A stretch of 64,000 nt of DNA from Octopus vulgaris (Eukaryota), in NCBI GenBank assembly GCA_951406725.2, contig OX597815.1, positions 168,826,001 to 168,890,000 of the forward strand. Direction: 5' to 3'. How positions within the stretch are numbered: position 1 is the stretch's first letter; each line of letters opens with the position of its first letter. Positions 9,677-53,578 of this stretch are shown piece after piece. The notes beneath the pieces were generated by a model. The model was given only the letters and a program-made list of their open reading frames with translations, was not told where the DNA came from and did no database searches. The position numbers and the translations under genes are program-made.

Positions 9677-9757
9677 ATGATAAATTATAAGTTGCTAATA
9701 TTTTCACTGACAGTCACTACATGGATACAGACTGCAACAAGCAGCGCACTAAAAACA
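9677..9757 (+). CDS. dae4: Exon 1 (coding part) of dae4-like gene: signal peptide MINYKLLIFSLTVTTWIQTATSSALKT
   Basis: ATG at 9677, 27 codons with a basic residue, hydrophobic core and small-residue cleavage region. It ends exactly at a consensus donor ACA|GTAAGT in phase 0, matching the phase-0 acceptor at 15743. Confidence 0.8.
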
Positions 9758-10203
9758 GTAAGTATTTATTTTGTTGAACTTTCTGGCTTCATTTAATATC
9801 TTAGTATAAAACAGTATTTAACGTATACAAATATTCAAAGCATGAAACTCCATACCGCTGTATATAATATGCGTGTGAGACAAGCGTACCCCCAACACAT
9901 ATTAGGATAATTTTTTTAATGAATTTGTCTAGACAGGCGGGCGCGCACACACACACACACAGCTAATCGAAGTTACAAAGTGATTTAAGAGCCAAGAGTG
10001 TCTAGCCTGACATTACTTTTTGAGTTCTTTTTCCGTGTTTGTATTACAGATTGGATTGATAAATAATTTAATGTAATTCAGTTTGAATGATGTAAATAAC
10101 TTGGTTGAATGATAAATTTAGTGTTGCTGGTGACGCTGGTTTGTCGAGGAGGGAAGCTTTGAACAAGTGGGACAAGACAAAACGATACCTTGGCCCTTAT
10201 ATC

Positions 10204-10248
<45 letters not shown>

Positions 10249-10654
10249 ATGAGATTATATATATATATGTCCGCAGGGACCCGTATCATCATGACCGAGT
10301 GGTTCAGAAATTTACAATGCATTCATGAAGGCAGGGTTCGATCTCACTCCATGTGATCTTGGGGAAAAGATTCGACCTGAAAGTTACGTTCAAGGAACAT
10401 GCGGCGACGTCTTTAGGCATGGGCACACTGGGCAGTTTCCTGGGGGCCCCTCACGGGTCAAGGGGCACAGTTTTGATCTATGCATGCTGTAGCGTGCTGG
10501 CAATGAATAAATGTTATGAAGATCCAGTAATTTGCCCTGAGACGGCCATGGGAACATGTGTCTGTTAATAATACTCAATGAGTAAGTGTAGGTGGTACAG
10601 TTGACTGAATAAATAAAGGTTCATCGCCAAAGCCAATAGATCTATTATGTGTGT

Positions 10655-10691
<37 letters not shown>

Positions 10692-11552
10692 ATGCGTGTG
10701 TGAATGTATTTATGTAGATTTCGAAGGAGCTTACTGTGATGGCCTGCTCGATTCTCAGGATCCATATTTTATACTACTCTTTTATAAGGCATGATATATT
10801 GGTTTGAAATTTCCTGGCACAAGGTGCCAGCAAATTCGGTGGTGGTGGGGTAAGTCGACATCGGCGGAATTTGAATTCAGAATGCAAAGACTTGAAATGC
10901 TGCCGCTAAGCATTTTGCCTGGCGTGCTAATAGTTCTGCCAAATTCGTCGCCGTATAAGGAATGATATACTTCATGTAATAAATATGCAACATATATTAC
11001 ACATAATAGAAACAACATATTACATTAGATATTCACACACAATACATGAATACACCAATCTTTACGTCGTCATGTTGGCGGGTTGTCATGAACTGGGGTT
11101 CTTATATGGGGTTATTGACTTTATAGAAGAACTGGGGGATCACGTCTCGTCCTCACGTTTTCTTTTTGGTTGATTTCTACAGCCGAACTCCCTTCCCGTC
11201 ACCAACAACTGCACAGAGTGCACTGGTTGCATTTTAATATGGCAAGGGAGACTTCGTGTCCTTGGCTAGACTAATGAGTTCTCTTAACATTGCCATATCA
11301 TTCATAAACCACCATAAATCACATGTAACATATATCATGCAGCATATACATTATATTACTTCTACATACATAAATACATACATACATACATATATACACA
11401 CACACACACTCACACGTGCGTGTGTATATCGACCCCAGTGTTCAAATGGTACTTATTTCGTCGACCTCGGCGGAATTTGAACTCAACGTAAAGGCGAACG
11501 AAATGCCGCTAAGCATTTTACCCGGCGTGCTAACAAGTCTGCATGCTCACCG

Positions 11553-11605
<53 letters not shown>

Positions 11606-13226
11606 TGATGGCTGCTCCCTCGTTATTGAGTATGGACATTGCACGAGGCTTAACTGTTATCGGTTCTGTGATCGAATGTGACTTTTTAGCCCAGCTAAAG
11701 ACCTACAATGTCTTGTACAGAATTGGCAGCTAAAACCTTTGCCGGCTGTAGTTATATACACATACGTACATATACACTCATACATACATACAAACAAATT
11801 TTTAATATCAGATACACACACACACACCGTGTCTATGAGCCAATATCCTGAAACCTGACCTCCACTACTTCTTTGCTATAGCTTCCTGTATCACACTTGT
11901 TAATAGTCAAAAGAAATCTATTACATACACGCACCCACATATCTCCCATACTCAGACAAGCATTGAAACGTGGAATCGAAATTTTAGCGTCCGTAGCTGT
12001 CACCCACTGAAAAACAACAAAAGGGGTAACTTCAACAGTTTTATACAAAGAACAGGTATGCTGTTTGTGGAGAGAGAGAGAGAAAGCAGGGTGTTTATGC
12101 GCATACCTTACAGGTGGATATGAGAAGACAGCATAGACTAGAGATATCGTAGTTGAACACAAACAAGAGGTAGGGTGCGAGTGAGGTTGACAAATAGTGA
12201 GGTGGGAGCAAAGGCAGATGTTTACTGTGAGAAACAATGCTTGGCTCTGATAAAAAAAAAAGTACAAAAGAACAAAACAAAAATAGTAAAGAAAATAAGA
12301 ATGACCCGACTATGTGGGCAGCACAAGAGGGCCCGAACGTCTACGCAATTGCTCAAACTGCTAGAAATAATAGCCAGCTCTCCCTCAAATCAAACCCATA
12401 CCGTCTTAAAAAGGGAAGAGTTATACACCACTACAATGCGGTACAACAGCTAGCATATGCCTTAAAAACAGAAAAATAATGTGATGGTCACAGCTTGAAC
12501 TCTTTTTAAGGTCTGGTTGATTTGAAGCTAAACCGCTTACTGTGATTTGGAGCAAGACTCCGATAAACTGACTTCTAGGGAGTATTCAAAAGCTATCCTG
12601 TCGTTCTTAATTTCTCTGGCTTAGTTTTTCAACAGGAAGAAAATAAATTAAATGTTCATTATCCAGAACGAATTTGATATGAATGAAAAGTTAGCATATA
12701 TGTTTCACTGTCGACAAGTCAATGCATTATCCCGCTCTATCCCTGCTACAACCACCAAGTAATCGCAGTAAAACTAGTTCAGTTCACTCAAGTAAACAAC
12801 TAAGATAGAAAAGAAACAGGTCGGGTTTTTTCCCAGTTATTTTCATTGTGCATTGAGAAAAGCAAATTGAGTACAATATTTGGCGGCAGTTGAACAAGAA
12901 TGAAATAGTGGAGAGTTTTAAAATCAACATGAGGAATCATAGATTGTAAAAAGGTTGCAGGTTGGACAAGGGCGAAATGTTCTGATTTGCCCTTTGTGGT
13001 TACCCTTTATATTTATTCATCTATTTCCTAACTTTTATATCTTTCAATCGGCGATATTAAAAAAAATATTTATAAAATAGTGTTAAATTTCCAATTTTTG
13101 CATGCTGTCTTGGTTCGTGTAAGGCCTTTGTTCTTGGATTTCTGTTTTTCTTACTATTTATAGGCGCAAGAATGATTATTAAGAAGGTCGCTTTGCAACC
13201 ACGTGGTTTCGGGTTCAGTCCCACTC

Positions 13227-13286
<60 letters not shown>

Positions 13287-14229
13287 TGTTGTTTGTCCCC
13301 TTACCATGTCTTCGACAAAAGAAAAAAAAAAGAGACTAATAGAATAAGTACCAAACTTGAATATAAGTACTGGGGTCGATTTGTCCGGCAAAGCCCTTAA
13401 ATGCGGCGCCTCTCCAGCATGGCCGCATTCCAATGACTTAAACAAGTAGAAGATAAAAGATCCTTGTAACAAATAAAGAAATTAATATTTCTATCTGGGA
13501 AAATGTTCTACAGTTTCCGTTACGAGTTTATGTGTTAAATGTGATATATTACGCACAGTCGCGACAAATAAAATCTACGACGGAGTTTCGATTGTGAATA
13601 GTTTCCTTTCTTGGGGAAGGTATAAATTACGTGGTATATAAAGAAATACATAATCGAAAACAAAGCAAAAAAAAAAAAAAACACCATTATTAGTAAGAAA
13701 CTCTAGCATTCGAGGATGCTAGTTAGGATAAATTATGCCTTTCGAAATTCACTTCAATTTCCACTTGACTAGATCCAGCTGGAACACTTCTCAGCTGCTT
13801 CTGCCATTATTACCTTAAGAGCTCTGGTAATTATCATTAAGGAGATAACCACAAGGCAGAGGTAATTTCCTTGCGAATAAAACTAATTATCTTTTTTTAA
13901 TAATATCAGGATGTATGCATTTCTCTTTATATATTTCTTTATTGCCCACAAGGGGCTAAACATAGAGGGGACAAACAAGGACAGACATAGGTATTAAGTC
14001 GATTACATCGACCCCAGTGCTAAACTGGTACTTTATTTATCGACCCCGAAAGGATGAAAGACAAAGTCGACCTCGGCGGAATTTGAACTCAGAACGTAAC
14101 GACAGACGAAATATACCGCTAAGCATTTCGCCCGGCGCGCTAACGTGTCTGCCAGCTCGCCGCATTCAATGCATTTCTCTTTATATTAGTCGCTACTACC
14201 CTCGTGCCATCCACTCACTGACTGTGTTA

Positions 14230-14830
14230 CCTCATACATAACCTTCAGAAAAATAGATATTTAAAAAAAAATTCTGCAAACACCTTTCAAATATTGTAGA
14301 TTCTGATTTGTTGTGAAAAATTTTGTTCAGAAGTGGGGAAGGAGTTTTGAATAATTTATATAAATCGACTTTGTTTCCTCATAACTTTTAGCAAAAATTA
14401 GTACTTTTTAATAAAATTCAGAAAGTATACATTATAATTATATCAGAATTTCATGTGAAAAAAAAAAAAAAAATGGTGGATAAGCACACACATACATACC
14501 AACACATCACATAATTTCAAATTTCATTTTGTAAATATATATGTGATGTGTGTATGTGTCCACTAATTTTGTTTCTTTTTATCTTATTAAATTTCAATGT
14601 AATCCTAATGGTATTTGCTGAAAATTTCATTAGAAAAAAAATACACGTTTTTTTCTGAAAGTTATGAGGAAACAAAGCTGACTCATGTAAATTATTCAGA
14701 GTTCGCCCGACTACTCCCCAAAAAACTTTTCACAACAAATTCCATTATAATCAGGATCTACATCATCTGAAAAGTATTTGTAAAAACTTTTATTTAAAAA
14801 TATCCATTTTTCAGAAAGTCATGAGGAAAG
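14230..14830. mobile_element. Old foldback/MITE with long imperfect inverted arms, in intron 1 of the dae4-like gene
   Basis: ACCTTCAGAAAAATAGATAT pairs with ATATCCATTTTTCAGAAAGT, TTTGTTGTGAAAA with TTTTCACAACAAA, and TTTGTTTCCTCATAACTTT with AAAGTTATGAGGAAACAAA. Confidence 0.65.
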
Positions 14831-15742
14831 AAAGTTGGAGAGGGCACAATTCTATAGGTATGCCCTAAAGACAGTCATGAATGCCACTGTGAAGTCTGAT
14901 GCATGTGAAAGAAATTTTTATAGAAGTTACAGCCAGATAAGAACTGGATGTAACCCTCAAAGACTAGGAACTTATGAAGTTAAACATCTTGATGCTTCCA
15001 ATCTGCTACTGACAAAGGGCTTTTTGCCCAAAACATTGAAACTCTTGCCTTCTTGTTTCCCCATGACATATGAATTTATCCAAATTTTTGAAATTCATTA
15101 AATATTTGCTGACACAGACCATCACTAGTTTCCTCAATTTCTGGTTTTTATTTAATTTTCTATTTTTTTATCAATGTCAATGAAATAAGTACCAGTAATA
15201 TACAGGAGTAGATTCCAACCCAATGGCTATATTTATTCCACTCACAGAAAATAAAAATGAAAATGTAAAAAAAGTGCATCTCCATGGTCACCCAACATGC
15301 TAGAAAAAATAACAGCAAAATCTCCCTCAACTGTCTTAAAAAGGGATTGATTAGCGTCATCCAGGTTCATTATGCCTGTGACAAGTCAGTAAGGTCATGA
15401 CTGGAATGCCTTTCAACACAAGTCAATCAGAACCAACTTGGGACCAAATAACAGAAAGGGGTTTTATGTCACAGCAAAAGAAAATATTCTCGTAGTCCTG
15501 TGCCAAGACTAAAAGTCATCATCATCATCATCATCCTCTTCACTACCACCACCACAATCTTTCCAGTCATTGAGAGAGAGACAATGTGAGAAACACTTGA
15601 CACTTCCTATTTCATTGGACAAGATACTTAACTCCACTTGCTAACAGTCTTAATTCCTATTTAGAGAATCAAGCATCAAAATATTTTTCATCATTATATT
15701 GCAATAATTTACATACAAATTTTTTTTTTTTAATTTTTACAG

Positions 15743-16265
15743 CTACCACTACCACAGTTCCAGTCACTAAAGAAGTTCTACCCAGGGTATAAACAGTATG
15801 GTGGAGAATTCAACAAGCTCCATCTATTTACGCTGATAGGATGTAATGAATCTTGCCAGAATAAAGTTTTGCACGACTCGAGTGCGTTACGCTTATCCTA
15901 TGCACTCAATAAGGTTGGTGGAGTCCACTCCTTGGGAAAAACACTTATTCGATTATCCACAAAAGGTGAGGACAGTGTGAGCGGCACAGATAATAACCAG
16001 TATATCTTTCACCCCATTGCTTATGGACCATATTTAGCAGACAAATATGGTTACCCAAATGTTTCAAAGTTACATGCTACAGATCCCATACAGACAATGA
16101 AGAAATTCTATGGAAAACAGGGAATAATACGGATAATAACATATGTCAAGCAAAACAATATGCCTAAAGGACATGTTGCATTGTGGGATTGTACACATTT
16201 CCACCAATCAAAAAACTGGTTGGTCAGTCATGAATTATTTACATTGGAATTCTGGGAATCTCCAG
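15743..16265 (+). CDS. dae4: Exon 2 of dae4-like gene: Tae4-family (T6SS peptidoglycan amidase effector, NlpC/P60-like fold) domain
   Basis: A poly-T tract and TTTTACAG acceptor precede 523 nt of open frame, which ends at donor CCAG|GTAAGA. The translation LPLPQFQSLKKFYP...HDSSALRLSYALN...SVSGTDNNQYIFHP...FYGKQGIIRI...KGHVALWD...LEFWESP has, in order, counterparts of the Tae4 motifs as recalled: RPxF, NACPIRMSYVLN, TVTGSDKKRYMFRV, FAGKQGII, TGHVTLWNG and FWSL. Confidence 0.9.
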
Positions 16266-18210
16266 GTAAGATATAAAATGTTTATACTTAGTTTACAATT
16301 TTTAATACATCACAATTGGTTGTTTAGCTTACTAGAACTAGTAGCTAAATCACCCTCAAATCTCACACTACCATCTTTAAAAAAAAAAAACAGAAGACAT
16401 ATTAGGTATTATGGGACTAGATAAACTTTGACTGAGAAAAATGATGAAGTGGTTGTGGTTGGAACACCAAAGATCAAATGTGTGATTGATCAAGGCAGAT
16501 GTAGAACTAAATAACAATCCCAATAATCCCTTTAGGGAGATGGAATAATAGAGGCCTTAAAATATTTAATTACACCTGTACCAGATTCAAACTTGATTTT
16601 CATTAATCTGGGACATCAATAAAATAAGTTCTACTCATTGTTTAGTCTCAGGTTAATCCAGGCCTTTTGATCTAAGGCATTCCTAAAGTGACTAAGTGTA
16701 TCTAGGGATACACTTATCTAATGTTCTTTTTCATTTTTAAGATGCAAGGGAAATTTTGCTATTTTTTTAAAAGTATTGATGATATATTTGCTGTTGTTTC
16801 AATTAACAACTATCATTTGTAACATCATTTTTATGCTAAATCGAAATAAATTACTTAGAGAAAATGAACTTTACTTTTAACTTTTAAGAAAGAGAATAAA
16901 TATCAACATCATTTCATAGCATGTAGTTTTGTTAAAAAAATAAAGGCCACCAACCTACGAAAACCATTTCTAAAGAATATATGTCCCATACCAATTCCAC
17001 CAAGAAATTTTCCCTTATTGTTTGACTCTGTTTGCAACAGAAACAGCTTTGTTTCTGAGTTGTAGAAGTTATAGTTAGGTTTAAAACACATCAAATGTTA
17101 AATTATCATATTAACAGAATTTGGTATATTTCTATATTTCCTTAACCCTTCAGTATTTGAAAGGGCCACACCAAACCAAAATATTCTCCTGGTTTTATAT
17201 TCAAACCAGCCAAATCCAGCTTCTCACACCTATCTTACAATGTCATTCTGAAAATAAACACTCACACCATCAAAATCTCAAAGCTGTTAGATAATGTATG
17301 ATTAATTCAAATCAATTTGAATAAATGAAGAATTATATTTAACAGAATAATCTGTATGCTAAAAAGTTTAGATTAACAAAGCGAAAGGGAATATTTGTTA
17401 TCCAAATACATCTCTGTACCTAAGACCATTGATTTAATTAGCAGTGGCAAGCTAAAATGTATGCCACACAGGGCTGTCCTCAAGTTTGCTGACTGCAGCA
17501 GGCCCAAATGTGCAGCCATCCCCCACCTTGAAGTGTTGCTTAGTGCAGACTGCCCTCATCACCTGAACTTCCTCAGATACACTACTGCCTGAAAGTATGA
17601 AAAGTAACCTTGAATCTGAGAAGATTCAATCTCTAAAACATGAGCACAAACCCAAGATATCCAAAATCATTTAGGCTCTTGATATTTTGCATTATTTTTC
17701 ACAGCCTGGTCATTGGACTCCAAATAATCCAAGCATTCATCATCATCATTTAACATCTGTTTTCCATGCTGCCATGGGTTGTACAGTTTGACAGGAGCTG
17801 ACCAGGGCTGTTCAGACTTTCATGTCCATTTTGGCATGGTTTCTACAGTTGGATGCCCTTCCTAACACCAATGAAATACATTGTGTTTGAGTAATTCTGA
17901 GCAATTCAAACATATAAGATTGTTTTATTTAAACCACCCATATCTAATCCAAATATTCTGTCTACCTGTTTTATATTTGAATTAACCAGATCCAGCTTTT
18001 CACACCCGCCCAACAATGCCATTCTATAAATAAACTATCGCATCATCATAATCTCAAAGATACAAGATAGTTCATGATTAATTCAAAACAATGTGAATAA
18101 ATAAGCAATACATTTGACAGAGTAATCTAAATGCTAAAGAGTTAAAATAAATTCAGATCTTCTGTAATTTCAATTGTCATAATGTAATTTTGGTTTCCAT
18201 TTCTTTATAG

Positions 18211-18419
18211 ACTCCAGCTGCAAACTGACAGATAATTATCAATGGCAAGATTACTATCAGAAAGCAGATCCAGCTGATATTGGCAGAAAAAGTTCCAAAT
18301 CTTTAAGACACAAAGCCCATAATAGACACAAAGGAAGCCAACGCTACCAACATCTTCTACGACTAGTTAAGAGTAAGCAACGGCCAAAGAAAAAGCACCA
18401 CCAAACATTAGGAAGCTGA
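18211..18419 (+). CDS. dae4: Exon 3 (coding part) of dae4-like gene: linker plus cationic C-terminal tail, stop TGA at 18417-18419
   Basis: The acceptor TTTCCATTTCTTTATAG is phase-1 compatible with exon 2 (G+AC = Asp). The frame reads DSSCKLTDNYQWQDYYQKADPADIGRKSSKSLRHKAHNRHKGSQRYQHLLRLVKSKQRPKKKHHQTLGS*. Confidence 0.8.
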
Positions 18420-19110: not shown

Positions 19111-22100
19111 TGTAAGTTCTTATTTCTTTAAATATTTTTGTTCACCCTGGATTATCTGTTTCTTTATTACCCACAAGGGGCTAAACATAGAGGGGACAAA
19201 CGGCTTAAGTCAATTACATCGACCCCAGTGCGTAACTGGTACTTAATTTATCGACCCCAAAAGGATGAAAGGCAAAGTCGACCTCGGCGGAATTTGAACT
19301 CAGAACATAACGGCAGACGAAATATGGCTACGCATTTCGCCTGGCATACTAACGGTTCTGCCAGCTCGCCGCCTTTCACCCTGGATTATCATTATTGGTT
19401 TAATGTTCACTTTTCCATGCTTGAATGAGTCAGACAGAATTTACTGAGATGGGTTATTTTTTACAGTCAGATGCCCTCCTTGTTGCCAATCCTCACATGT
19501 TTACAAGGGAGATTGGAAATGGATCTCACTTATGTAACATGTGGTTACAACTATCTCATGATGCTAACTAGGACAAGGAGACAGTAACACACACACATCA
19601 TCATCATCGTCGTCATTTAACGTCCGTTCTCCATGCTAGCATGGGTTGGACAGTTCGACCGGGGATCTGGGAAGCCAGAAGGCTGCACCAGGCTCCAGTC
19701 TGATCTGGCAGTGTTTCTACAGCTGGATGCCCTTCCTAATGCCAACCACTCCGAGAGTGTAGTGGGTGCTTTTTACGTGCCACCAGCACAGGTGCCAGGC
19801 AAGGCTGGCAACGGCCACGATCGGATTGGTGCTTTTTATGTGCAACCGGCATGGAAGCCAGTCTAGGTGGCGCTGGCATCAGCCACGTTCGGATGGTGTT
19901 TTTTACGTGCCACTGGCACGGAAGCCAATCTAGGCATCGCCCATGATACATATATAAATGTATGAGTGGGTTCCATTCCATTTACCAAATTTCACTCAGA
20001 AGGCATTGGTCAGTCAAATGCTTCAGTAGAAAGCACTCAAAGTGTAACACTGAAATTGAACTCAAGACCACACGACTGTTTAGTGAACTTCTTAATCATA
20101 CTACTTCTTCCTACCTATCTACCAAAACCCGTGCATGTGTCCCAACATACCCATGTCGGTCTCTACCCATAGCTATGCTTGTACCTAACACACAGTCATG
20201 CCTGCATAAAATACATAAAAACACTTAATACAACAAAGATAATAAAACAAAACATCAAAGGTACCCAAGGTATGCTGAGCTGCACCCGATTTTGCAGTGA
20301 AAGTACAGTGACAAAATAGACATATGAGAGTTGACTTGTTTGTCAAGTACAATTGGAAACTAACTAAATAACCCCAAAAAGCAGAAAGGAAAAAAAGTAA
20401 TAAAAAAAACTGCCGATAAACTAATGCAATAAAAACAGATTAATATATTAAGAAAATATATTAGCTGTGTCTATGTTTTGCAAGTAGCAACTAGATATAA
20501 CATTTTTATGAAAGAAAATCATAGCCTCATTTAGTTATGTTAAATTTCTTTTTCTATAAAAGTTTTTTTTTTCTTCTTCGTTTTACTATATCTTCACTGT
20601 GGTTCATTTATGCTAGTTACTATTTAAATCTAATGTCGGCTTCTGAATTCAAACCCTATTCTACATGTGTGTGTGATTATGAACATAGAATTTAGAATTT
20701 GATAAATTACAAGGGTTAATAGCTAACCAAATCCTTAAGGAACTGTATGTACGTAGTTATGTCTGTATGTATGTATCATCATTATCTTTTAACGTCCATC
20801 TCCCATGCTCATATGGGTTGGACAGTTCAATTGGAGCCAACACGGTCTGAGCAAGGCATTGTGCTTCAATATGTGTGTGTGTGTGTGCAAGTATATACAT
20901 ATGTGTATGTGTGCATATGTAAATATATACATGTGTGTGTTTATAGACAAATTTAGAGAGAGAATAAGTGAGTCAGTTTATTTTTCCTCAACATTACTGC
21001 CTATACAATAAAGAAAGTACATTTAACAATACTGCTATCACTAGATTAATTATGTAGCTGATCATCTAATTAGCTCAGCGGTTCTCATACTGACAATTAT
21101 CAAACCTCCTACCAAAAACAAAATAATGTGTACCAGTGGAATTTTTTACTGCCTTCCTCTTTATTAATGAGAACACAAAAGAGTCGGCATTCACATACGT
21201 CTTGTTTTCTCTGCTGCATTGTTGGTTTAAAAAGTTTAAAACTATCTAAATTATATTTAACATGGCAAATTCTTTGTCCTCTTTTTTCATCTTCACAGCA
21301 CCTCTCATGGAGAGAGGGTGAAAAAGCTAGGTTCTCCTATGAGAAACACTGACCTAGATGATCTAATTAGTGCTGGGGTTGTTGCACAAGCATAGTTAAA
21401 AGAGTAAGGGAAAAGGAGGAAGGAGGAGTGCTACAAACAAAGGGTTTCTTTCTTCAAGTGAAAAGTAGATTGTAAGAAGTATGATGTTGCAGACTAAGTG
21501 TGGAAGATCTGTGTAAGCTGGAGAGAAATAAAGCAAACATGATCCACTGGGAAAGTAATAAGAGACACAATATAATGAATGCTAGAAAGAAAATTTTGAG
21601 GGTCAAATCTTTGATACAGGGCCTCATGAATTTGAGATGGGTAATATACAGTACCTTAATAGAACCAGACAGTCAATACTAAAATGGAAAAAAATACTTC
21701 AAAGTACTAAATGATGACAACAATGATGCTTTGATTTCTTATCACCATCACCTTTATCCCTCTTTCAGACACCACGCCATTCAAAGTGGGGGAGCCCTGA
21801 ATTCCTACTCAACCCACTCGAATGTGCTCCTTATCACACTGCACCTCTTTCCCTTCTGTTTCTCTCTTTCGTAACAAACTCTGTTAGTCTCTCCCCTATC
21901 ACACTCTCAAAACAATAAACCTACTCCAATCATAATTTAGCATCTCTCACCTAGTCACATCCCACTCTCTCTCTCTCTCTCTCATTCTCCCACTTAGTCA
22001 TGGGGAACCCTTCATCTTGTGAGTTGTAAAGGTGACCTCACTAGTGCTGGTGATGCAAGAAAAAAAGTACCAAGTACACTCAGAAGAGTACTGTAAATCA

Positions 22101-27000: not shown

Positions 27001-28620
27001 CAATGGACACTGACAGGAACAAAAAGAAAACATAAAGTCATCACTTTGGAAACGAAGTATGAAATTGTCAAAATGTATGATGGCAGTACAACTGTGAAAA
27101 ACATTTGTGACAAATTTTCACTTAACTCATCAACTGTCTGCCCGATTCTCAAAGAAGAACAAAAATATTGATCTCAAGTGAGAAATGTGCAGCCTTTGCA
27201 ATCAACCTGGGCTTGTAAAAGAGATGCTGGAAGCATTATTCCGGAAATGGAAAAACTGTTAAATGCATGGATAAGTAACAAAACACAATGCATGTATATG
27301 AATGTTAATCAAGTGTTGATTTGTAGCAAAGAATTGTCTCTTTTCAGTATGCTTGAAGAAAAGTAAGGTGACACAAATGAAAATTTTGTTGTAAGCAGAA
27401 AATGGTTTGATTGATTTAAAAATTGACATGAGTGGCATTTCATTGAAGTGCAAGGAGAAGCATCAAACGCAGATGCTGATGCAGCAGAAAAATTTCCAGA
27501 AACATTGACAGAAATAATTAAAGAAGAGGGTTACATGCCACAACTGATTTTTAATGTCAATGAAACAGGACTTTCCTGGAAATGTATGCCATCCAGTAAT
27601 TACATTGCTAAGGAAGAATCTGCACTGCCTGGTTTTAAAGTTGCAAAAGATTGACTGACATAATTATTTGGAGGAAATGCACCTAGGGATTTAAAATTAA
27701 AAGCAATCCTAGTTTATCAAGTGGAAAAAGCAATCCTAGTTTATCAAGTGGAAAATCTGGGGGCACTTAAAAACATTTTAAAAAGTACCCTTCCAGTCAT
27801 ATGGAAATCGAATAAAAAAGCTTGGGTTACAGAAATATTATTTGAAGAATGCTTTTAGTATCACTTTGTGCCAAAAGTTAAGAGATATTGTGATAAGAAT
27901 GAACTTCCATTTCATGTAATGTTGCTTATCGACAATGCACCTAGCCACCCTCCAATTCTGCAACATCTCCATCCTAATATCAAAGTTACTTTTTTGCCTC
28001 CAAATATGACATCACTTTTGCAACCAATGGACCAGGGTGCTATTGCAACTTTTAAAGCCTATTATTTAATACTGAATGAAGAAACAGACAAAGAAGGGGA
28101 ACCAACTGTAATGGAATTCTGGAAAAATCACAATTATACCACAGTAAAAATCATAGGAAAAGTATGAGATAATATTCCTCAAAAGAATTTGATAGGCACT
28201 TGGAAAAAAAATTTGCCCTTAATTTCTTAATGGTTTTGAGGGTTTTGAACCATTACAAGAAAAAGTACAAAAAGAAACAGAAATTGTAAACCTGGCAAAT
28301 GAATTGAATTTCAACGTGTTGACGAGTGACATAGATGAGCTGCTTCAATCATATGGTGACAAACTCACTAATGAAGAGCTTACTGCAATGCAAGAGCAGG
28401 CAACAATAGAAGAGGAAAAGAACACTGCCAATGAAATGCCAGTCGGTGCATTCATGTTGAAAGGGCTCACAGAAGCATTTCAACATTTGGATAAAGCCGC
28501 GGAAATTTTTCAAGCACAAGATCCAAATTTTGAACAAAGTGCAAAAATTTCTACTGCTATAACAAATGCTTCTGCATGTTACCGAGAAATTTATAGAGAG
28601 CAAGAAAGCTTCTTCTAAGC
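27001..28620 (+). pseudogene. Decayed pogo/Tigger (CENP-B-like) transposase
   Basis: Contains KRKHKVITLETKYEIV (HTH), EMEKLLNAWI, QGEASNAD, IFNVNETGLSWKCMP, LLIDNAPSHP and FLPPNMTSLLQPMDQGAIATFKAYY. It has several in-frame stops and a 26-bp tandem duplication near 27701-27755. Confidence 0.9.
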
Positions 28621-34334: not shown

Positions 34335-34948
34335 ATAAATAGAGGACGAAAATGTAACTATTCTTTGAGACTTCCCAGTATGTACAGACTGGACCATCAA
34401 GGCAAATAAACCAGATGTTGTTGTGAAAGACAAAAGCAATAAAGTCTGTTTATTGATTGACACGAGCATACTCTGTGACCATAATATCTCAGCAAAACAA
34501 TTTGATAAGCTCAGAAGATATAAAGATTTGCTAATCGAAATCAAAAAGATGTGGCATCTCAAGATGGTTACAATACCAGTGATTGTAGGAGCCCTTGGAA
34601 CGATCAAAAAAGGAACTGAAAATTATTTAACCCTTTTGTTACCATATTTCTGTCGAGATGCTCTATCTTTTTTCCAATTAATTTTAAATAAAACAAAGAA
34701 TTTAGTAAAATAACTTAGTTATCAATAAGCTTGTGTTAGGAACATAAATTGTGACTAAGGTTTAGTTGAAGACTTTAATTAAGAAATTTTGAAAACAAGA
34801 CATTTGTATCACAGAGCCAGAGGCGGTTTCAGCCGGGTTGGTATCAAAAGGGTTAAGAAGGATCCCTAGCTTATCATCCATACAGGAAGTGCAAAAGATT
34901 GTCTTAACTGGTACGTCACACACACTAAGAAGAAAATTGGCGCTGTGA
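34335..34948 (+). mobile_element. 3' end of an R4/Dong-like non-LTR retrotransposon (restriction-like endonuclease domain), interrupted by a MITE
   Basis: Reads IKANKPDVVVKDK...CLLID...KLRRYKDL...KMWHLKMVTIPVIVGALG. After removing the MITE the frame continues NYLRRIPSLSSIQEVQKIVLTGTSHTLRRKLAL*. Confidence 0.85.
34631..34852. mobile_element. TTAA-target (piggyBac-like) MITE. Other copies at 4793-5015, 59369-59590 and about 43651-44276 (with a nested SINE)
   Basis: TIRs CCCTTTTGTTACCA / TGGTATCAAAAGGG, flanked by TTAA at 34627-34630 and 34853-34856. Confidence 0.85.
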
Positions 34949-41645: not shown

Positions 41646-43064
41646 ATCATCATCATCATCGTTTAACGTCCGCTTTCCGCGCTAGCACGGGTTGGACGGT
41701 TCGACCGGGTCTGGGAAGCCAGGGGCCGCTCCAGGCTCCAGTCTGAATCTGGCAGAGTTTCTACGGCTGGATGCCCTTCCTAACGCCAACCACTCCGTGA
41801 GTGGATTGGGTACTTTTTACGTGCCACCTGCACAGGGGCCGGAGGGTCCGGCATCAGTCACGATCGGTTCGAGCTTTTAACGTGTCAGCGGCACGGGGGC
41901 AACGAGGTCCGGGGTACTTTGGGGATCGGGGTACTTTGGGGATCCAGGGTACTTTGGGGATCCGGGGTACTTAGAATGGGTAGGGGGTATGTGGAATTGC
42001 TGCAGAAAGCAGCCCGGGTCTTTGTAGTCACAGCATATCTCCAGAGATCTCGGTCCTTCGCCATTGCCTCAGTGAGGCCCAATGCTCTGAGGTTATGCTT
42101 GACTACCTCATCCCATGTCTTCCTGGGTCTACCTCTCCCCCTGATACCTTCAACTGTTTGGGAGTGGCACTTCTTCACACATCTCTCTTCATCCATCCGC
42201 AGCACATGACCATACCATCGCAAGCGTCGCTCTTGCACACCACATCTGATGCTTCTTATATCCAGCATTTCTCTCAGGATGCTTACACTCTGTCTTGCGT
42301 GCACACTGACACTACACATCCAGCGGATCATGCTAGCTTCATTTCTTTCAAGTCTACGCATGTCTTCTGCAGTCACAGCCCATGTTTCATTACCGTGAAG
42401 CATGGCAGTTCGCACACATGCATCATACAATCTACCTTTCGCTCTGAGGGAGAGACCTTTTGTTGCCAGTAGGGGTAGGAGCTTTCTGAACTTTGCCCAG
42501 GCTATTCGTATTCTAGTGGTGATACTCTCTGTGCATCCACCTCCGCTACTAACTTGGTCACCCAGGTAGCGGAAACTATCAACTACTTCTAGTTTCTCTC
42601 CCTGGAGTGTGATGGAATCTGTTTTCTGAGTGTCTGTTGTGTCTATTGTCCCTGTGCATCTGCCGCACATGAAAGCTATCTTATCTGTTAATTTCCCTTT
42701 AATGTTGCTGCACCTCTTATGTGTCCATAACTTACATTGGGTGCATCTTATGGAGTTTCTACCTGTACCTTTCCTACAGGTTGAGCAGGGCCACCTACCC
42801 GAGGGGGTGTGTGCTGAGTACCTCTTGCTGCTTACTAATACTTTGGTCTTTGCTACATTTATTCTAAGGCCCTTTGATTCCAACCCTTGCTTCCACACCC
42901 GAAATTTCTCTTCTAGTTCCGGTAGTGATTCTGCTATGAGAGCTAGGTCATCGGCATAGAGGAGCTCCCAGGGGCATCCCGTTTTGAATTCCTCTGTTAT
43001 TGCCTGAAGGACTATGATGAATAAAAGGGGACTGAGGGCTGAGCCCTGGTGCACACCTACTTCT
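41646..43064 (-). mobile_element. 5'-truncated RTE-clade LINE: RT C-terminal part, PHD finger, 3' UTR and (GAT)n tail
   Basis: Uninterrupted frame with GVHQGSALSPLLF, LLYADDLAL, VDSFRYLG, RRLRWYGHVLRM and GRGRPRKTW. It is contiguous with the 3' UTR sequence found in many short copies across the window. Confidence 0.92.
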
Positions 43065-44349
43065 ATATATATAAAATATAACATGCTAACACTTTCTCAA
43101 ATTCTCAGTGAGAAGTTACTATCCAGAACTTCAAAAGTACCAGTATTATTGCAGAAGAGCCATACTTAATTCAAAATAGACTATCAATAAACAAACAGCA
43201 ACTGAAGTTGTTCAACTTATCAGTTAAGCGCGTCCTAGTATGTCAATAACATGAAAATAGCCTTATCATGGTTAAGATAAACAGTGAAATTCAAATACAT
43301 TCAACAACCCAGCTTTCTCTTTACTACATATGGTGCACAATATTAGGAGAATTTAATCAATTTGTTTCTTACTTTTAGTCAAGAGGGAAGGCAATGCCTA
43401 TGTTTCTTTACTGTCCCTCATCCCCCTGAGACTAGTAAGAGGGAGAGAGTAAGGTAACTTCAAAGAGGAGACCTGGCCTCAATGCTTGCAAAGGAAATGG
43501 ACTCGGTTGCCTGGTACCTTAGGTATTTTTAACAATATTAAACAAGGTTGTAAATTAAGTCAGTCACCCAGGTAGGTCATGGCAGGATCCAAACACAAAA
43601 TGCTAAAAGCAGAAATAAATACTGCAAGGCAACCACTCTCAGATTCTTAACCCTTTCATTACCATATTTCTGTAGAAATACACTGATTTTGTTTTAATTA
43701 ATTCTGAAATAATGAAGAATAAAATAATTTTACTATAGGCACAGGCATGGCTGTGTGGTAAGAAGCTTGCTTCCCAACCACATAGTTCCAGGTTCAGTCC
43801 CATTGCATGGCACCTTGGGCAATATCTTCTACTATCACCTCAGGCCAACTAAAACCTTATGAGTGGATTTGATAGACGGAAACTGAAAGAAGCCCATCAT
43901 ATGTATATGTAATATGTATGTATCTTTGTGTCTCTGTTTGTCCCCCCCCCCCATCACTGCTTAACAATTGGTGTTGGCGTGATTACGTCCCCGTAACTTA
44001 GTGGTTCAGCAAAAGAGACCGATAGAATAAGTAGTAGGCTTAAAAATAAATTCTGGGGTTAATTTGTTCAACTAAAAACTTTCAATGCAGTGCTCCAGCA
44101 TGGCTGCAGTCAAGCTACTGAAACAAGTAAAAGGATAAACGAATAAAAAAAATATTAAGCTGAGGTTTGGAACATAAATTAAGTTTTGATGGGAGGTTTT
44201 AATTTAAATCACTTTAAAACAGTAAGTTTATATTACAGAACCAGGGGCAGTCTCAGGCAGATTGATATCAAATGGGTTAACAGTTCTGTTAAAGCACCAA
44301 CCTGGATTATTACTCACATTTTTATCACACACACACCCCCATCAGAGAA

Positions 44350-48999: not shown

Positions 49000-49685
49000 T
49001 GCATGCACACAAAGATAGAGTGATAGATACAACTGAGTGGGCAAACAGAAATATGAAACACTGCCTAGTGCTTTTTTTTTTTTTTTTTTGATAAGCCTGG
49101 AACTTATTCTATCAGTTTCTTTTTGTGAAACCAGTAAGTTATGGGGATGAAAATAAACGAACAGCAGTTGTGAGGCAGTGATGAGGGAGAAACACAGAGA
49201 CAAAGACACACACATACACTTACATGTATACATACATATATATACGATTGATTTCTTTCAGTCCACTCACAAGGCTTTGGTTGGTCTGAGGCTATAGCAG
49301 AAGACACATGCCAAGTCACCACACAGTGGTACTGAAACCAGGACCATGTGTTTTGGAACCAAGTTTCTTACCACACAGCCACACCTGCACCTATGTATGT
49401 GTGTGTGTGTGTGTGTGTATGGGTGTATATATGTATGCATGTATACATATGTGTGTACATATTACATGTACATCTATATATATAGATCGCCATGTTGATT
49501 CGCTAGCTTCTGCACGCATTTTTTTTCTCTCCTTGTTTCTCTCCGTGTTTCTTTTCTGTTGAAGAGCGTAGGCTCAAAACGTAAAAGACTTGTTTTATTT
49601 CCATTCCTGAGCGCCATACTAATACAATTGTTTGTTTGTACTCCACCTGCCTTCGTCTTTTGTTTATTTTCATAAAGCTTCCCGT

Positions 49686-49765
49686 TATATATATATATAC
49701 ATCTACACATATACATGTATACATATACATCTATATATATGTACATCTATACATATACATATATA

Positions 49766-49807
<42 letters not shown>

Positions 49808-49960
49808 CATGTATATATACATATATATATACATATATATATATACATATATATATACATATATATATATATACATGTATATATACATATATATATACAC
49901 ATGTATATATATATATATATACACATGTATATATATATATATATATACACATGTATATAC

Positions 49961-50010
<50 letters not shown>

Positions 50011-50126
50011 GTATATATATATATATATATACACATGTATATATATATATATATACACATGTATATACATATATATATACATATATATATACATATATAT
50101 ATATACATGTATATATATATATATAT

Positions 50127-50190
<64 letters not shown>

Positions 50191-50207
50191 TATATATACA
50201 TCTATAT
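49686..50207. repeat. Long (TA)n/(TACA)n compound microsatellite
   Basis: Directly visible. It is the source of the YI-repeat ORFs. Confidence 0.95.
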
Positions 50208-50244
50208 AAAAAAGTTGAGTTGTGGGGTATCGCACGAGTGGGAT

Positions 50245-50902
50245 TATATATGAAAAAAGGTTTGAAAATGCAATTTAAACGATGTTTATTTACTTAACCG
50301 GTTTCACTCTTTGTTAAAAAGATTGTCAAAAGTAACATTGAATATTATGGGTTCAAAAAAAGTTTTTTACATAATTGTCACATTGAATATTATGAATTCA
50401 AAAATGTTTTTTTATACATAATTGTCACATTACATGTATAAATATAGTATAAAAAAGTTCAATAGTGTGATGAGAATATTTGGAAAAATTGGCAGAAAAG
50501 AATAAAACAAATATATTATTGGAAATTTGGTTGCGTTAATTATTGGTTGTCGCAAATTGTCACATTACATGTATATATATACAGTCTTTGGTAGAAATGA
50601 CATGTTAAAGACATAAGGAAGTGTAATAGTTTGGTGAGAAAGCTTGTAATATTGACAGAGAAAATTAAAATGGATATTTTAGACATCTCAGAATATTTTG
50701 AATCGAAGGCGAGAATTTGTTTTTTACTGACCTGTTTGTTTTAGCAGAAAAGTTGAATTGAGAGAAAAAAAGATATGTACCCAATTTGGTTTATACTTCC
50801 CCTTCAAGCATCAGTGACTTTGGGGTTATTGGGAGGTGAGTATGCGGGTGTGAATAGATGTGTCCGTGTGCCTGCTGGTCAGACAGCGTCTGTTTGTCAC
50901 AC

Positions 50903-50992
<90 letters not shown>

Positions 50993-51097
50993 CACACACA
51001 CACACAACGCACCCACATATATAATATATACACACAGCACACAAATATAACATGTATTTATATATAATATACACACATATATAAAACATACACACAC

Positions 51098-51143
<46 letters not shown>

Positions 51144-51858
51144 CATAATATAAATATCACACAAATACACCTAGCATATATATACACATACAATACACAT
51201 ACACAGCATGTATATAATACACATACACAATATATGCATGCAATATACATACGCAATACATACATATAATATATATATATATAGACAATGCATATACATA
51301 TATACATATATACATATAAATAGTGTTTACATACACATACATAGATATACCACATATACACACAATATACATACATACAATGCATACACATACACGTACG
51401 CATACATATAAAATATATAGACACACACACACATAACATACATACACAATGCATACATATATATACACGCAACGTATATACATGTATTCATGTATATATA
51501 GCACACTTACAATATACATATATACAATGCACACATACACACATATATACACTTAATTGTACACATACATATACAATACACATACATACAATATACATAT
51601 ACACAATGCGCATGCAAATAATGCACATGTTTATACACCCATATACATGAAAATATATATACACACACACACATACACACACACATATATATATATACAC
51701 ATATATATATATATATACACATATACATACATACATACATGCACATACATATATTTTTTCACACACATACACACACATATATATATAAAATTCACACACA
51801 CACCCACACACACAAAATACATTGTGTACGAGTGTATGTATTTACATGTGTATTTGTT

Positions 51859-51890
<32 letters not shown>

Positions 51891-52685
51891 CTGTGTGTGT
51901 ATATGCATGGTATGTGTGTATATGTGAGTACATTGTTTGTGTGTGTGTGCGGTATGTAGAGATATATTTGAGTGTGTACACTATAGGTTTGTATTTTGTG
52001 TGTGTGGGTGTGTGTGTGAATTTTATATATATATGTGTGTGTATGTGTGTGAAAAAATATATGTATGTGCATGTATGTATGTATGTATATGTGTATATAT
52101 ATATATATATGTGTATATATATATATGTGTGTGTGTATGTGTGTGTGTGTATATATATTTTCATGTATATGGGTGTATAAACATGTGCATTATTTGCATG
52201 CGCATTGTGTATATGTATATTGTATGTATGTGTATTGTATATGTATGTGTACAATTAAGTGTATATATGTGTGTATGTGTGCATTGTATATATGTATATT
52301 GTAAGTGTGCTATATATACATGAATACATGTATATACGTTGCGTGTATATATATGTATGCATTGTGTATGTATGTTATGTGTGTGTGTGTCTATATATTT
52401 TATATGTATGCGTACGTGTATGTGTATGCATTGTATGTATGTATATTGTGTGTATATGTGGTATATCTATGTATGTGTATGTAAACACTATTTATATGTA
52501 TATATGTATATATGTATATGCATTGTCTATATATATATATATTATATGTATGTATTGCGTATGTATATTGCATGCATATATTGTGTATGTGTATTATATA
52601 CATGCTGTGTATGTGTATTGTATGTGTATATATATGCTAGGTGTATTTGTGTGATATTTATATTATGTATATATGTGTGCGTGTG

Positions 52686-52722
<37 letters not shown>

Positions 52723-53578
52723 GTGTGTGTATGTTTTATATATGTGTGTATATTATATATAAATACATGTTATATTTGTGTGCTGTGTGTATATATTATA
52801 TATGTGGGTGCGTTGTGTGTGTGTGTGTTCTGTGTGTGTGTGTGTTGTGTGTATGTGGTGTGTGTGTGTATACTATGTGTGTGTGTGTATTGTTGTTGTG
52901 TGTGTGTGTGTATATATGTGTGTGACAAACAGACGCTGTCTGACCAGCAGGCACACGGACACATCTATTCACACCCGCATACTCACCTCCCAATAACCCC
53001 AAAGTCACTGATGCTTGAAGGGGAAGTATAAACCAAATTGGGTACATATCTTTTTTTCTCTCTCAATTCAACTTTTCTGCTAAAACAAACAGGTCAGTAA
53101 AAAACAAATTCTCGCCTTCGATTCAAAATATTCTGAGATGTCTAAAATATCCATTTTAATTTTCTCTGTCAATATTACAAGCTTTCTCACCAAACTATTA
53201 CACTTCCTTATGTCTTTAACATGTCATTTCTACCAAAGACTGTATATATATACATGTAATGTGACAATTTGCGACAACCAATAATTAACGCAACCAAATT
53301 TCCAATAATATATTTGTTTTATTCTTTTCTGCCAATTTTTCCAAATATTCTCATCACACTATTGAACTTTTTTATACTATATTTATACATGTAATGTGAC
53401 AATTATGTATAAAAAAACATTTTTGAATTCATAATATTCAATGTGACAATTATGTAAAAAACTTTTTTGAACCCATAATATTCAATGTTACTTTTGACAA
53501 TCTTTTTAACAAAGAGTGAAACCGGTTAAGTAAATAAACATCGTTTAAATTGCATTTTCAAACCTTTTTTCATATATA
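50245..53578. repeat. Large inverted repeat: arms 50245-51821 and 51990-53578, 168-nt spacer
   Basis: The unique portion 50245-50900 is the reverse complement of about 52920-53578. Mirrored ORFs (51557+ / 52254-, 50775+ / 53047-) have identical starts. Confidence 0.95.

Follow-up and report, generated by a model that had tools for sequence, protein, structure and literature searches.

A Tae4-like protein of octopus and other molluscs carries Ser or Thr in place of the catalytic Cys and is probably non-catalytic

Sequence and predicted fold place the protein encoded by a gene of Octopus vulgaris in the Tae4/Dae4 family, but it lacks what an active member requires: the catalytic Cys is absent, with Ser (Ser74) in octopus, and the catalytic His is present. 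Bacterial Tae4 needs Cys44, His126, and Asp137, and Ala mutants at these positions lose toxicity (PMC3695027). The Cys-His pair is missing from all 162 animal-clade sequences that we retrieved, and to judge from their alignment the substitution is at least pan-molluscan, neither octopus-specific nor recent. Because the site toggles among Ser, Thr, and Ala, it is unlikely to be a nucleophile, and the octopus protein, as a member of the mollusc family, is probably non-catalytic.

The octopus gene and its Tae4-like domain

The window that we analyzed is a stretch of 64,000 nucleotides of O. vulgaris DNA, and within the 2.8-Gb assembly the gene is found on contig C2, at 168.8 Mb. An open frame at 15734-16276 in the window matches Pfam Tae4 (PF14113) with 38.1 bits, the cut-off being 27. 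The protein of the Octopus bimaculoides orthologue, which is 97% identical, located exons 1 and 3 in the window by tblastn. In total, the gene has three coding exons and GT-AG introns, with 813 nt from ATG to TGA encoding 270 aa. Its exons and the positions discussed below are as follows.

9677..9757, + strand: coding exon 1, ATG followed by 27 codons that encode a predicted signal peptide (located by tblastn from O. bimaculoides; splice joint in 4/4 runs)
15743..16265, + strand: coding exon 2, whole Tae4/NlpC-P60 domain, residues 28-201 (Pfam PF14113, predicted model, 4 spliced contigs)
15875..15877, + strand: Asp72, at the bacterial Tae4 Asn position two residues before the catalytic Cys
15881..15883, + strand: Ser74 (AGT), at the Tae4 nucleophile position
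16172..16174, + strand: His171 (CAT), at the catalytic His position
16190..16192, + strand: Cys177 (His+6), the sole invariant Cys, at the distal end of strand E168-177, which carries the His
16202..16207, + strand: His181-Gln182 (His+10/+11), at about the third-triad position (Asp137 in Salmonella Tae4), with the Gln codon at 16205
18211..18419, + strand: coding exon 3, with Cys205, a tail rich in Lys, Arg, and His, and the closing TGA (splice joint in 4/4 runs)

Both splice joints (9757 to 15743 and 16265 to 18211, each GT..AG) are bridged by contigs of 4/4 runs, and the spliced contigs of these runs, which come from four studies, have 0 differing letters over 15743-16263 of exon 2. The runs are 4 of the 24 listed; their RNA status is presumed, none of those matching the octopus gene being on record as RNA, and the spliced contigs are the basis for calling the gene expressed, with neither tissue nor level to be read from them. 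Since four contigs bridge both introns and carry no other letter in exon 2, the Ser74 codon is part of the transcript, and an assembly error can be dismissed; the original prediction hinged on AGT at this position, and no TGT occurs in the spliced contigs of any of the four runs. The two introns, the signal-like N-terminus, and the basic tail set the octopus gene apart from bacterial Tae4, and the GT-AG introns, spliced transcript, and signal-like N-terminus are features of an integrated eukaryotic gene. The N-terminus is hydrophobic (hydropathy 2.3 over nine residues), as it is in 13/13 relatives checked, and the protein is predicted to be secreted, the signal peptide being called by hydropathy only. 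The tail carries a net charge of +12 over 64 residues in the O. bimaculoides protein; in the 10 proteins checked, the tails range from +5 to +13 and the domain pI from 8.0 to 9.8, the latter a whole-domain figure and not a measure of pocket electrostatics.

Protein and Pfam searches of the assembly found no second Tae4 locus, a Cys-bearing paralogue included, which sets the copy number at at least one. Since both searches returned only one locus (lower bounds), we rejected the idea of an inactive paralogue beside an active one in the octopus genome. Very high-depth dispersed repeats occur at about 13930-14110 and 19200-19350, within and next to the gene, and a long AT/AC-rich low-complexity block, inverted in arrangement, occupies 49600-53000 of the window. 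We take three further ORF fragments, by motif, to resemble mobile-element genes: a non-LTR reverse transcriptase with a YADD motif at 41885-43096 (- strand), a DDE transposase remnant at 27859-28618 (+ strand), and a retroelement endonuclease remnant at 34369-34713 (+ strand).

The placement of Ser74 was obtained in three ways. With phmmer, DSSALRLSYALN aligns gaplessly on Salmonella Tae4 NACPIRMSYVLN, Ser over Cys (E 0.007), and octopus GHVALW is set over Salmonella GHVTLW. A profile built from 86 relatives matches Tae4 with an E value of 7.5e-12, and a profile-profile comparison with 24 bacterial Tae4 sequences returns a probability of 99.8% and places DTS on NSC/NTC, again without gaps. All three alignments give the same register at the nucleophile. 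Bacteria commonly have N-T-C here (Asn 79/82, Thr 52/82, Cys 82/82), and molluscs have D-T-S in that same register, which puts Ser at the nucleophile position; the octopus codon just before it, TCG at 15878-80, also encodes Ser. Both the Ser at 15881-83 and the intact His of GHVALW (16172-74) are thus where the original prediction had them. The register of the third residue shifts by one between the phmmer and profile-profile alignments, and octopus reads His/Gln there, as had also been predicted. These residues do not favor inactivity, as papain-like enzymes may have either Gln or His in the third place (PMC10318531).

For the O. bimaculoides orthologue, the AlphaFold2 model (pLDDT 85.5) matches Tae4 in Foldseek with an E value of 3.6e-10 and in VIA-align with a Z of 17.4 (second match 17.2) and an rmsd of 2.3 over 151 residues, the next family following at Z 7.4, and the best matches in the ESM Atlas are bacterial Tae4 clusters. 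The octopus protein is therefore predicted to have the Tae4 fold with its groove kept, and in Tae4 this groove holds the peptidoglycan stem (PMC3695027). Overall, the predicted fold, the motif register, and a Pfam score above the cut-off link the protein with bacterial Tae4 (Salmonella and Enterobacter Tae4, Serratia Ssp1; 4HFF, 4J30, 4JUR, 4BI3), and the differences are Ser for Cys, Asp for the Asn at -2, and Gln for Asp as the third residue. A disulfide between Cys177 and Cys205 is likely; Cys205 is Cys in 73/106 mollusc-clade sequences, a denominator that includes rows ending before the site.

The active site across animals and bacteria

Our first search returned 94 relatives, those with names being cephalopods, gastropods, bivalves, and one chiton; with the query included, the nucleophile column held 87 Ser, 5 Thr, and 3 gaps (n = 95). 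Deeper searches added Owenia (an annelid), Lingula (a brachiopod), Tubulanus and Lineus (nemerteans), Sepia, and Acropora. The resulting alignment comprised 275 sequences, 193 proteins and 82 bacterial loci, of which 252 passed the coverage filter and 244 were distinct; the tree was built on 204, with the bacteria halved. Many rows of the wider clade and other non-bacterial rows are taken as animal by their tree position, and the column tallies include near-copies, so that they count sequences and not events. The bacterial tally omits two plasmid loci annotated as Tae4, L004 (Polymorphobacter, 292-891), which looks frameshifted near the nucleophile, and L005 (Raoultella, 302-619), which looks truncated.

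Cys and His occur together in 82/82 bacterial Tae4 sequences, the His count being partly fixed by the search pattern and the Cys count not. None of the 106 mollusc-clade sequences has this pair: the nucleophile column reads Ser in 95, Thr in 11, and Cys in none, and His171 is His in every one, so the orthologues bear out the predicted Ser. In the 26 other members of the clade that contains the molluscs, the nucleophile is Ala (11), Ser (8), Asp (5), Gly (1), or Lys (1) and the His column reads His (20), Arg (5), or Tyr (1), again with 0/26 retaining the pair. The 30 coral-like rows lost it in another manner, with Cys without His in 18 and neither in 12. Thr arose at least twice within molluscs (in cuttlefish and in a bivalve paralogue), and one cuttlefish cluster at 90% identity holds both Ser and Thr variants. 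The Ser74 column is exceeded in conservation by 64 of 183 columns; the bacterial Cys is without any variation.

Other positions around the site are more constant. Asp72 is Asp in 106/106 molluscs, the bacteria having Asn in 79 and Asp in 3 (n = 82), and position 182 in molluscs is Gln in 85, Glu in 16, Lys in 4, and His in 1, i.e., Gln/Glu in 101/106. Coral-like rows without the catalytic His keep the His-Gln pair near the third-residue position (30/30 and 29/30), and this retention where the His is lost points to a structural role of the pair. Cys177 is Cys in 106/106 molluscs and 26/26 other clade members, a position that is Gly in 76/82 bacteria, and the two GCNESC cysteines are Cys in 45/106 and 10/106 mollusc-clade sequences.

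The same variability is seen in metagenomes. Among the 31 of 35 loci that could be parsed, some of the 35 being duplicates, the nucleophile is Ala in 18, Ser in 7 (codons AGY 5, TCC 2), Thr in 3, Gly in 2, Asp in 1, and Cys in 0, and 16/18 Ala loci have the His. All unsaturated dN/dS values printed for metagenome pairs lie between 0.05 and 0.52, from frames that ran stop to stop and took in some intron, which inflates the ratio; the values for the window against the metagenome loci are mostly saturated, with one pair at 0.16 (dS 1.96). The wider-clade relatives remain under purifying selection, and since Ala+His versions are held by selection, retention of His alone is not evidence of catalysis.

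We note several variants in individual lineages. Rows P0104, P0105, P0110, P0111, P0115 (Tubulanus), L106, and L107, in which His is replaced by Arg, have Ser or Thr at the nucleophile; speculatively, Arg at the His position could bind a stem-peptide carboxylate. Three bivalves have two paralogues, Mercenaria (P0037/P0163), Dreissena (P0053/P0084), and Pinctada (P0021/P0164); LOC numbers are adjacent within the pairs of Mercenaria and Dreissena, and it is the second Mercenaria copy that carries Thr. In a separate subclade of 12 rows, which neighbors the Hint-fused proteins of corals, the nucleophile is Asp and the His is replaced by Ser (P0126, P0174-P0181, P0185, P0187, P0190), several copies apparently coming from similar assemblies.

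The Hint-fused group is represented by two proteins of the same layout, P0182 of Acropora millepora, named "desert hedgehog protein-like" (414 aa), and P0189 (415 aa). In both, a signal-like N-terminus is followed by a Tae4-like domain, with Cys kept and His lost, and by a Hedgehog Hint module (Pfam Hint E 5e-44). Their Pfam Tae4 E values of 0.019 and 0.007 fall under the cut-off, and their placement in the family comes from profile search and tree. By domain layout, the coral protein looks like a Hog-type autoprocessing protein with an N-terminal domain derived from a bacterial effector. A literature search for this Hint/Tae4 fusion found no paper mentioning Tae4 among the matches listed.

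In the tree, the non-bacterial rows form one group of 162 with a support of 0.976, on a long branch that leaves the root insecure, and the same split between animal-clade rows and bacterial Tae4 has an SH-aLRT of 99 in a 112-row IQ-TREE subsample. Of 45 pattern matches in GTDB genomes sought as close bacterial relatives of the Ser clade, 0 were confirmed, a result that is compatible with a bacterial donor. The proposed origin is bacterial, most likely through one old horizontal transfer, and the Cys was probably lost before molluscs, annelids, brachiopods, and nemerteans split. Among molluscs the gene has been kept in chitons, gastropods, bivalves, and cephalopods, and annelids, brachiopods, and nemerteans have relatives of it. 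The original prediction implied a cephalopod change one base away from Cys; the loss is instead ancient, family-wide, and at least pan-molluscan.

Readings of the altered site

The Dae concept reportedly goes back to Chou et al. in 2015, whom Margolis et al. 2021 (PMC8713801) cite for the loss of Cys in Nematostella. In that animal, nvDae4, which like the mollusc proteins is a Tae4 derivative of an animal, is a secreted, active amidase with Cys63 that kills B. subtilis, and a Dae4-like paralogue without the catalytic Cys is uncharacterised (PMC8713801). cGAMP induces the two of them via NF-kB (PMC8713801), the Dae4-like gene with a log2FC of 8.3 (PMC8713801 supplement). By eye, the nvDae4 probe NTCAIRLSYAL stands in register with mollusc DTSALRLSYAL (PMC8713801 supplement), and the Dae4-like probe keeps its His (GHVDLYDG; same supplement), the Cys-lost/His-kept arrangement seen in the molluscs. 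This state of Dae4 is therefore already in print for Nematostella, whose nvDae4 differs from the mollusc family in being an active Cys enzyme. Tick Dae2 is likewise active (bioRxiv 2020.04.10.036376).

A precedent for binding without cleavage is mycobacterial RipD, a non-catalytic NlpC/P60 protein that retains peptidoglycan binding (review PMC12067865). RipD shares with the octopus protein the NlpC/P60 fold, the loss of catalytic residues, and an extra C-terminal tail; it differs in being bacterial, in belonging to another NlpC/P60 family, and in its site, Ala-Ser-Glu, from which the His is gone too (PMC12067865). By analogy, RipD would serve as a model for the mode of action of the mollusc protein.

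Non-catalytic PGRPs, with an amidase-derived domain of the Zn amidase_2 fold, bind peptidoglycan uncut. Their resemblance to the octopus protein is one of analogy only, fold and origin being unrelated.

Our preferred reading is that the octopus protein is a secreted pseudo-Dae4, descended from an amidase that was acquired horizontally and now without catalysis, and that it would bind peptidoglycan stem peptides or bacterial surfaces without cutting them; taken whole, we hold this with middling confidence, and peptidoglycan binding in particular is an evenly balanced proposition. Most likely, tae4 entered an ancestor of these animals long ago and gave rise to a secreted protein, which would have lost its catalytic Cys ahead of the divergence of molluscs, annelids, brachiopods, and nemerteans. 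The retained groove would then bind without cleavage, the cationic domain and tail would assist docking on anionic bacterial envelopes, and the proposed role would be recognition, agglutination, or scavenging of bacteria. Ala, Asp, Gly, Lys, and Thr at the nucleophile site and the loss of His in relatives speak for a pseudo-enzyme, the reading that the original prediction favored. Counter to it, the mollusc site is always a small hydroxyl residue (106/106), with His and Asp72 invariant. The Nematostella proteins are not among the relatives that we retrieved, so their immune induction may not extend to the mollusc clade.

The main rival, possible but doubtful, keeps the protein non-catalytic and has it co-opted away from bacteria, as a secreted matrix, mucus, or signalling protein whose old groove would take up a peptide or glycan of the host. 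The mollusc family usually has one or two conserved copies that track the species tree, in contrast to the many immune families that evolve fast, the coral Hint fusion shows the domain to be reusable in another setting, and runs from several studies yield transcript contigs, all of which would suit a host ligand. On the other hand, the nearest folds are peptidoglycan amidases and endopeptidases, bacteria are the targets of those Dae proteins that have been characterised, and in Nematostella the paralogue without Cys responds to immune stimulation (PMC8713801).

It is unlikely, in our judgment, that Dae4 of molluscs has been rewired into a hydrolase with a Ser-His-Gln/Glu site on the NlpC/P60 scaffold, acting as a serine amidase or an esterase, a reading that the original prediction also ranked lower. 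The combination of Ser/Thr, invariant His, polar third residue, and Asp72 could be the signature of a Ser-His enzyme, with Ser+His in 95/106, His and Asp72 each in 106/106, and Gln/Glu as the third residue in 101/106 molluscs. A survey of papain-like folds lists menin, APC5867, DUF2145, DUF2272, and DUF3750 with a conserved Ser at the Cys position, which as in octopus sits beside the remaining triad residues, proposes such families as possible peptidases, and cites two Cys-to-Ser mutants with partial activity (PMC10318531); the survey does not use the word Tae4. Ser-peptidase activity is considered likelier with negative pockets, in the survey's own wording a "speculative" idea (PMC10318531), and the mollusc domain is net positive overall. 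Unlike in those families, Ser is not invariant in the mollusc Dae4 family, as a Ser-nucleophile hydrolase of the papain fold would have it: Thr occupies the site in 11/106 sequences, with two origins, one of them in cuttlefish near Ser-bearing sequences, Lys is the third residue in 4/106, and Ala+His relatives are maintained under purifying selection.

A composite of these readings we regard as similarly improbable; here the molluscs would have a Ser hydrolase aided by the new Asp, the sister lineages pure binders (Ala, His to Arg), and the corals a Hint fusion. Very unlikely is an enzyme with a migrated active site, based on another Cys or on Asp/His chemistry. Such migration is documented in papain-like folds (PMC10318531), and Cys177 and Asp72 are invariant in molluscs; however, Cys177 is six residues further down the strand than His171, is retained where the His is Arg, and has a likely disulfide partner in Cys205. 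The GCNESC cysteines, raised in the original prediction as possible neighbors of the His, are too poorly kept (45/106 and 10/106) to be a substitute nucleophile and are ruled out by conservation, and alignment and secondary structure reveal no conserved substitute Cys near the His. Finally, an assembly error, private allele, or decaying pseudogene has nothing in its favor and is refuted by the four identical spliced contigs, the 813-nt open frame, and the canonical splice sites, and Ser or Thr stands in every relative covering the site (first search; 106 mollusc-clade sequences).

What the family may mean

Domesticated amidase effectors are usually portrayed as captured antibacterial enzymes. 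The present family contrasts with that picture of dae genes in that 0/162 animal-clade sequences keep the Cys-His pair, which is broken in several ways. This is less surprising than an octopus-specific rewiring would be, but it is broader: the catalytic pair is gone from an entire conserved family in animals, and it was lost in several ways. In the literature searched, in which subscription papers are thinly covered, we found no description of the mollusc Dae4 family; the alignments or supplements of Chou et al. 2015 may already show the mollusc Ser or the missing Cys of Lottia.

The natural series of Ser, Thr, Ala, and Arg makes the binder and enzyme readings directly testable. If Ser74 is catalytic, the family would present a case in which nature exchanged a Cys nucleophile for Ser within a papain-like fold, a matter termed "speculative" in PMC10318531. 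If peptidoglycan binding is true, these animals would possess an overlooked peptidoglycan-recognition protein of bacterial origin that is not a PGRP, with relevance to the immunity and symbiosis of oysters, mussels, and cephalopods.
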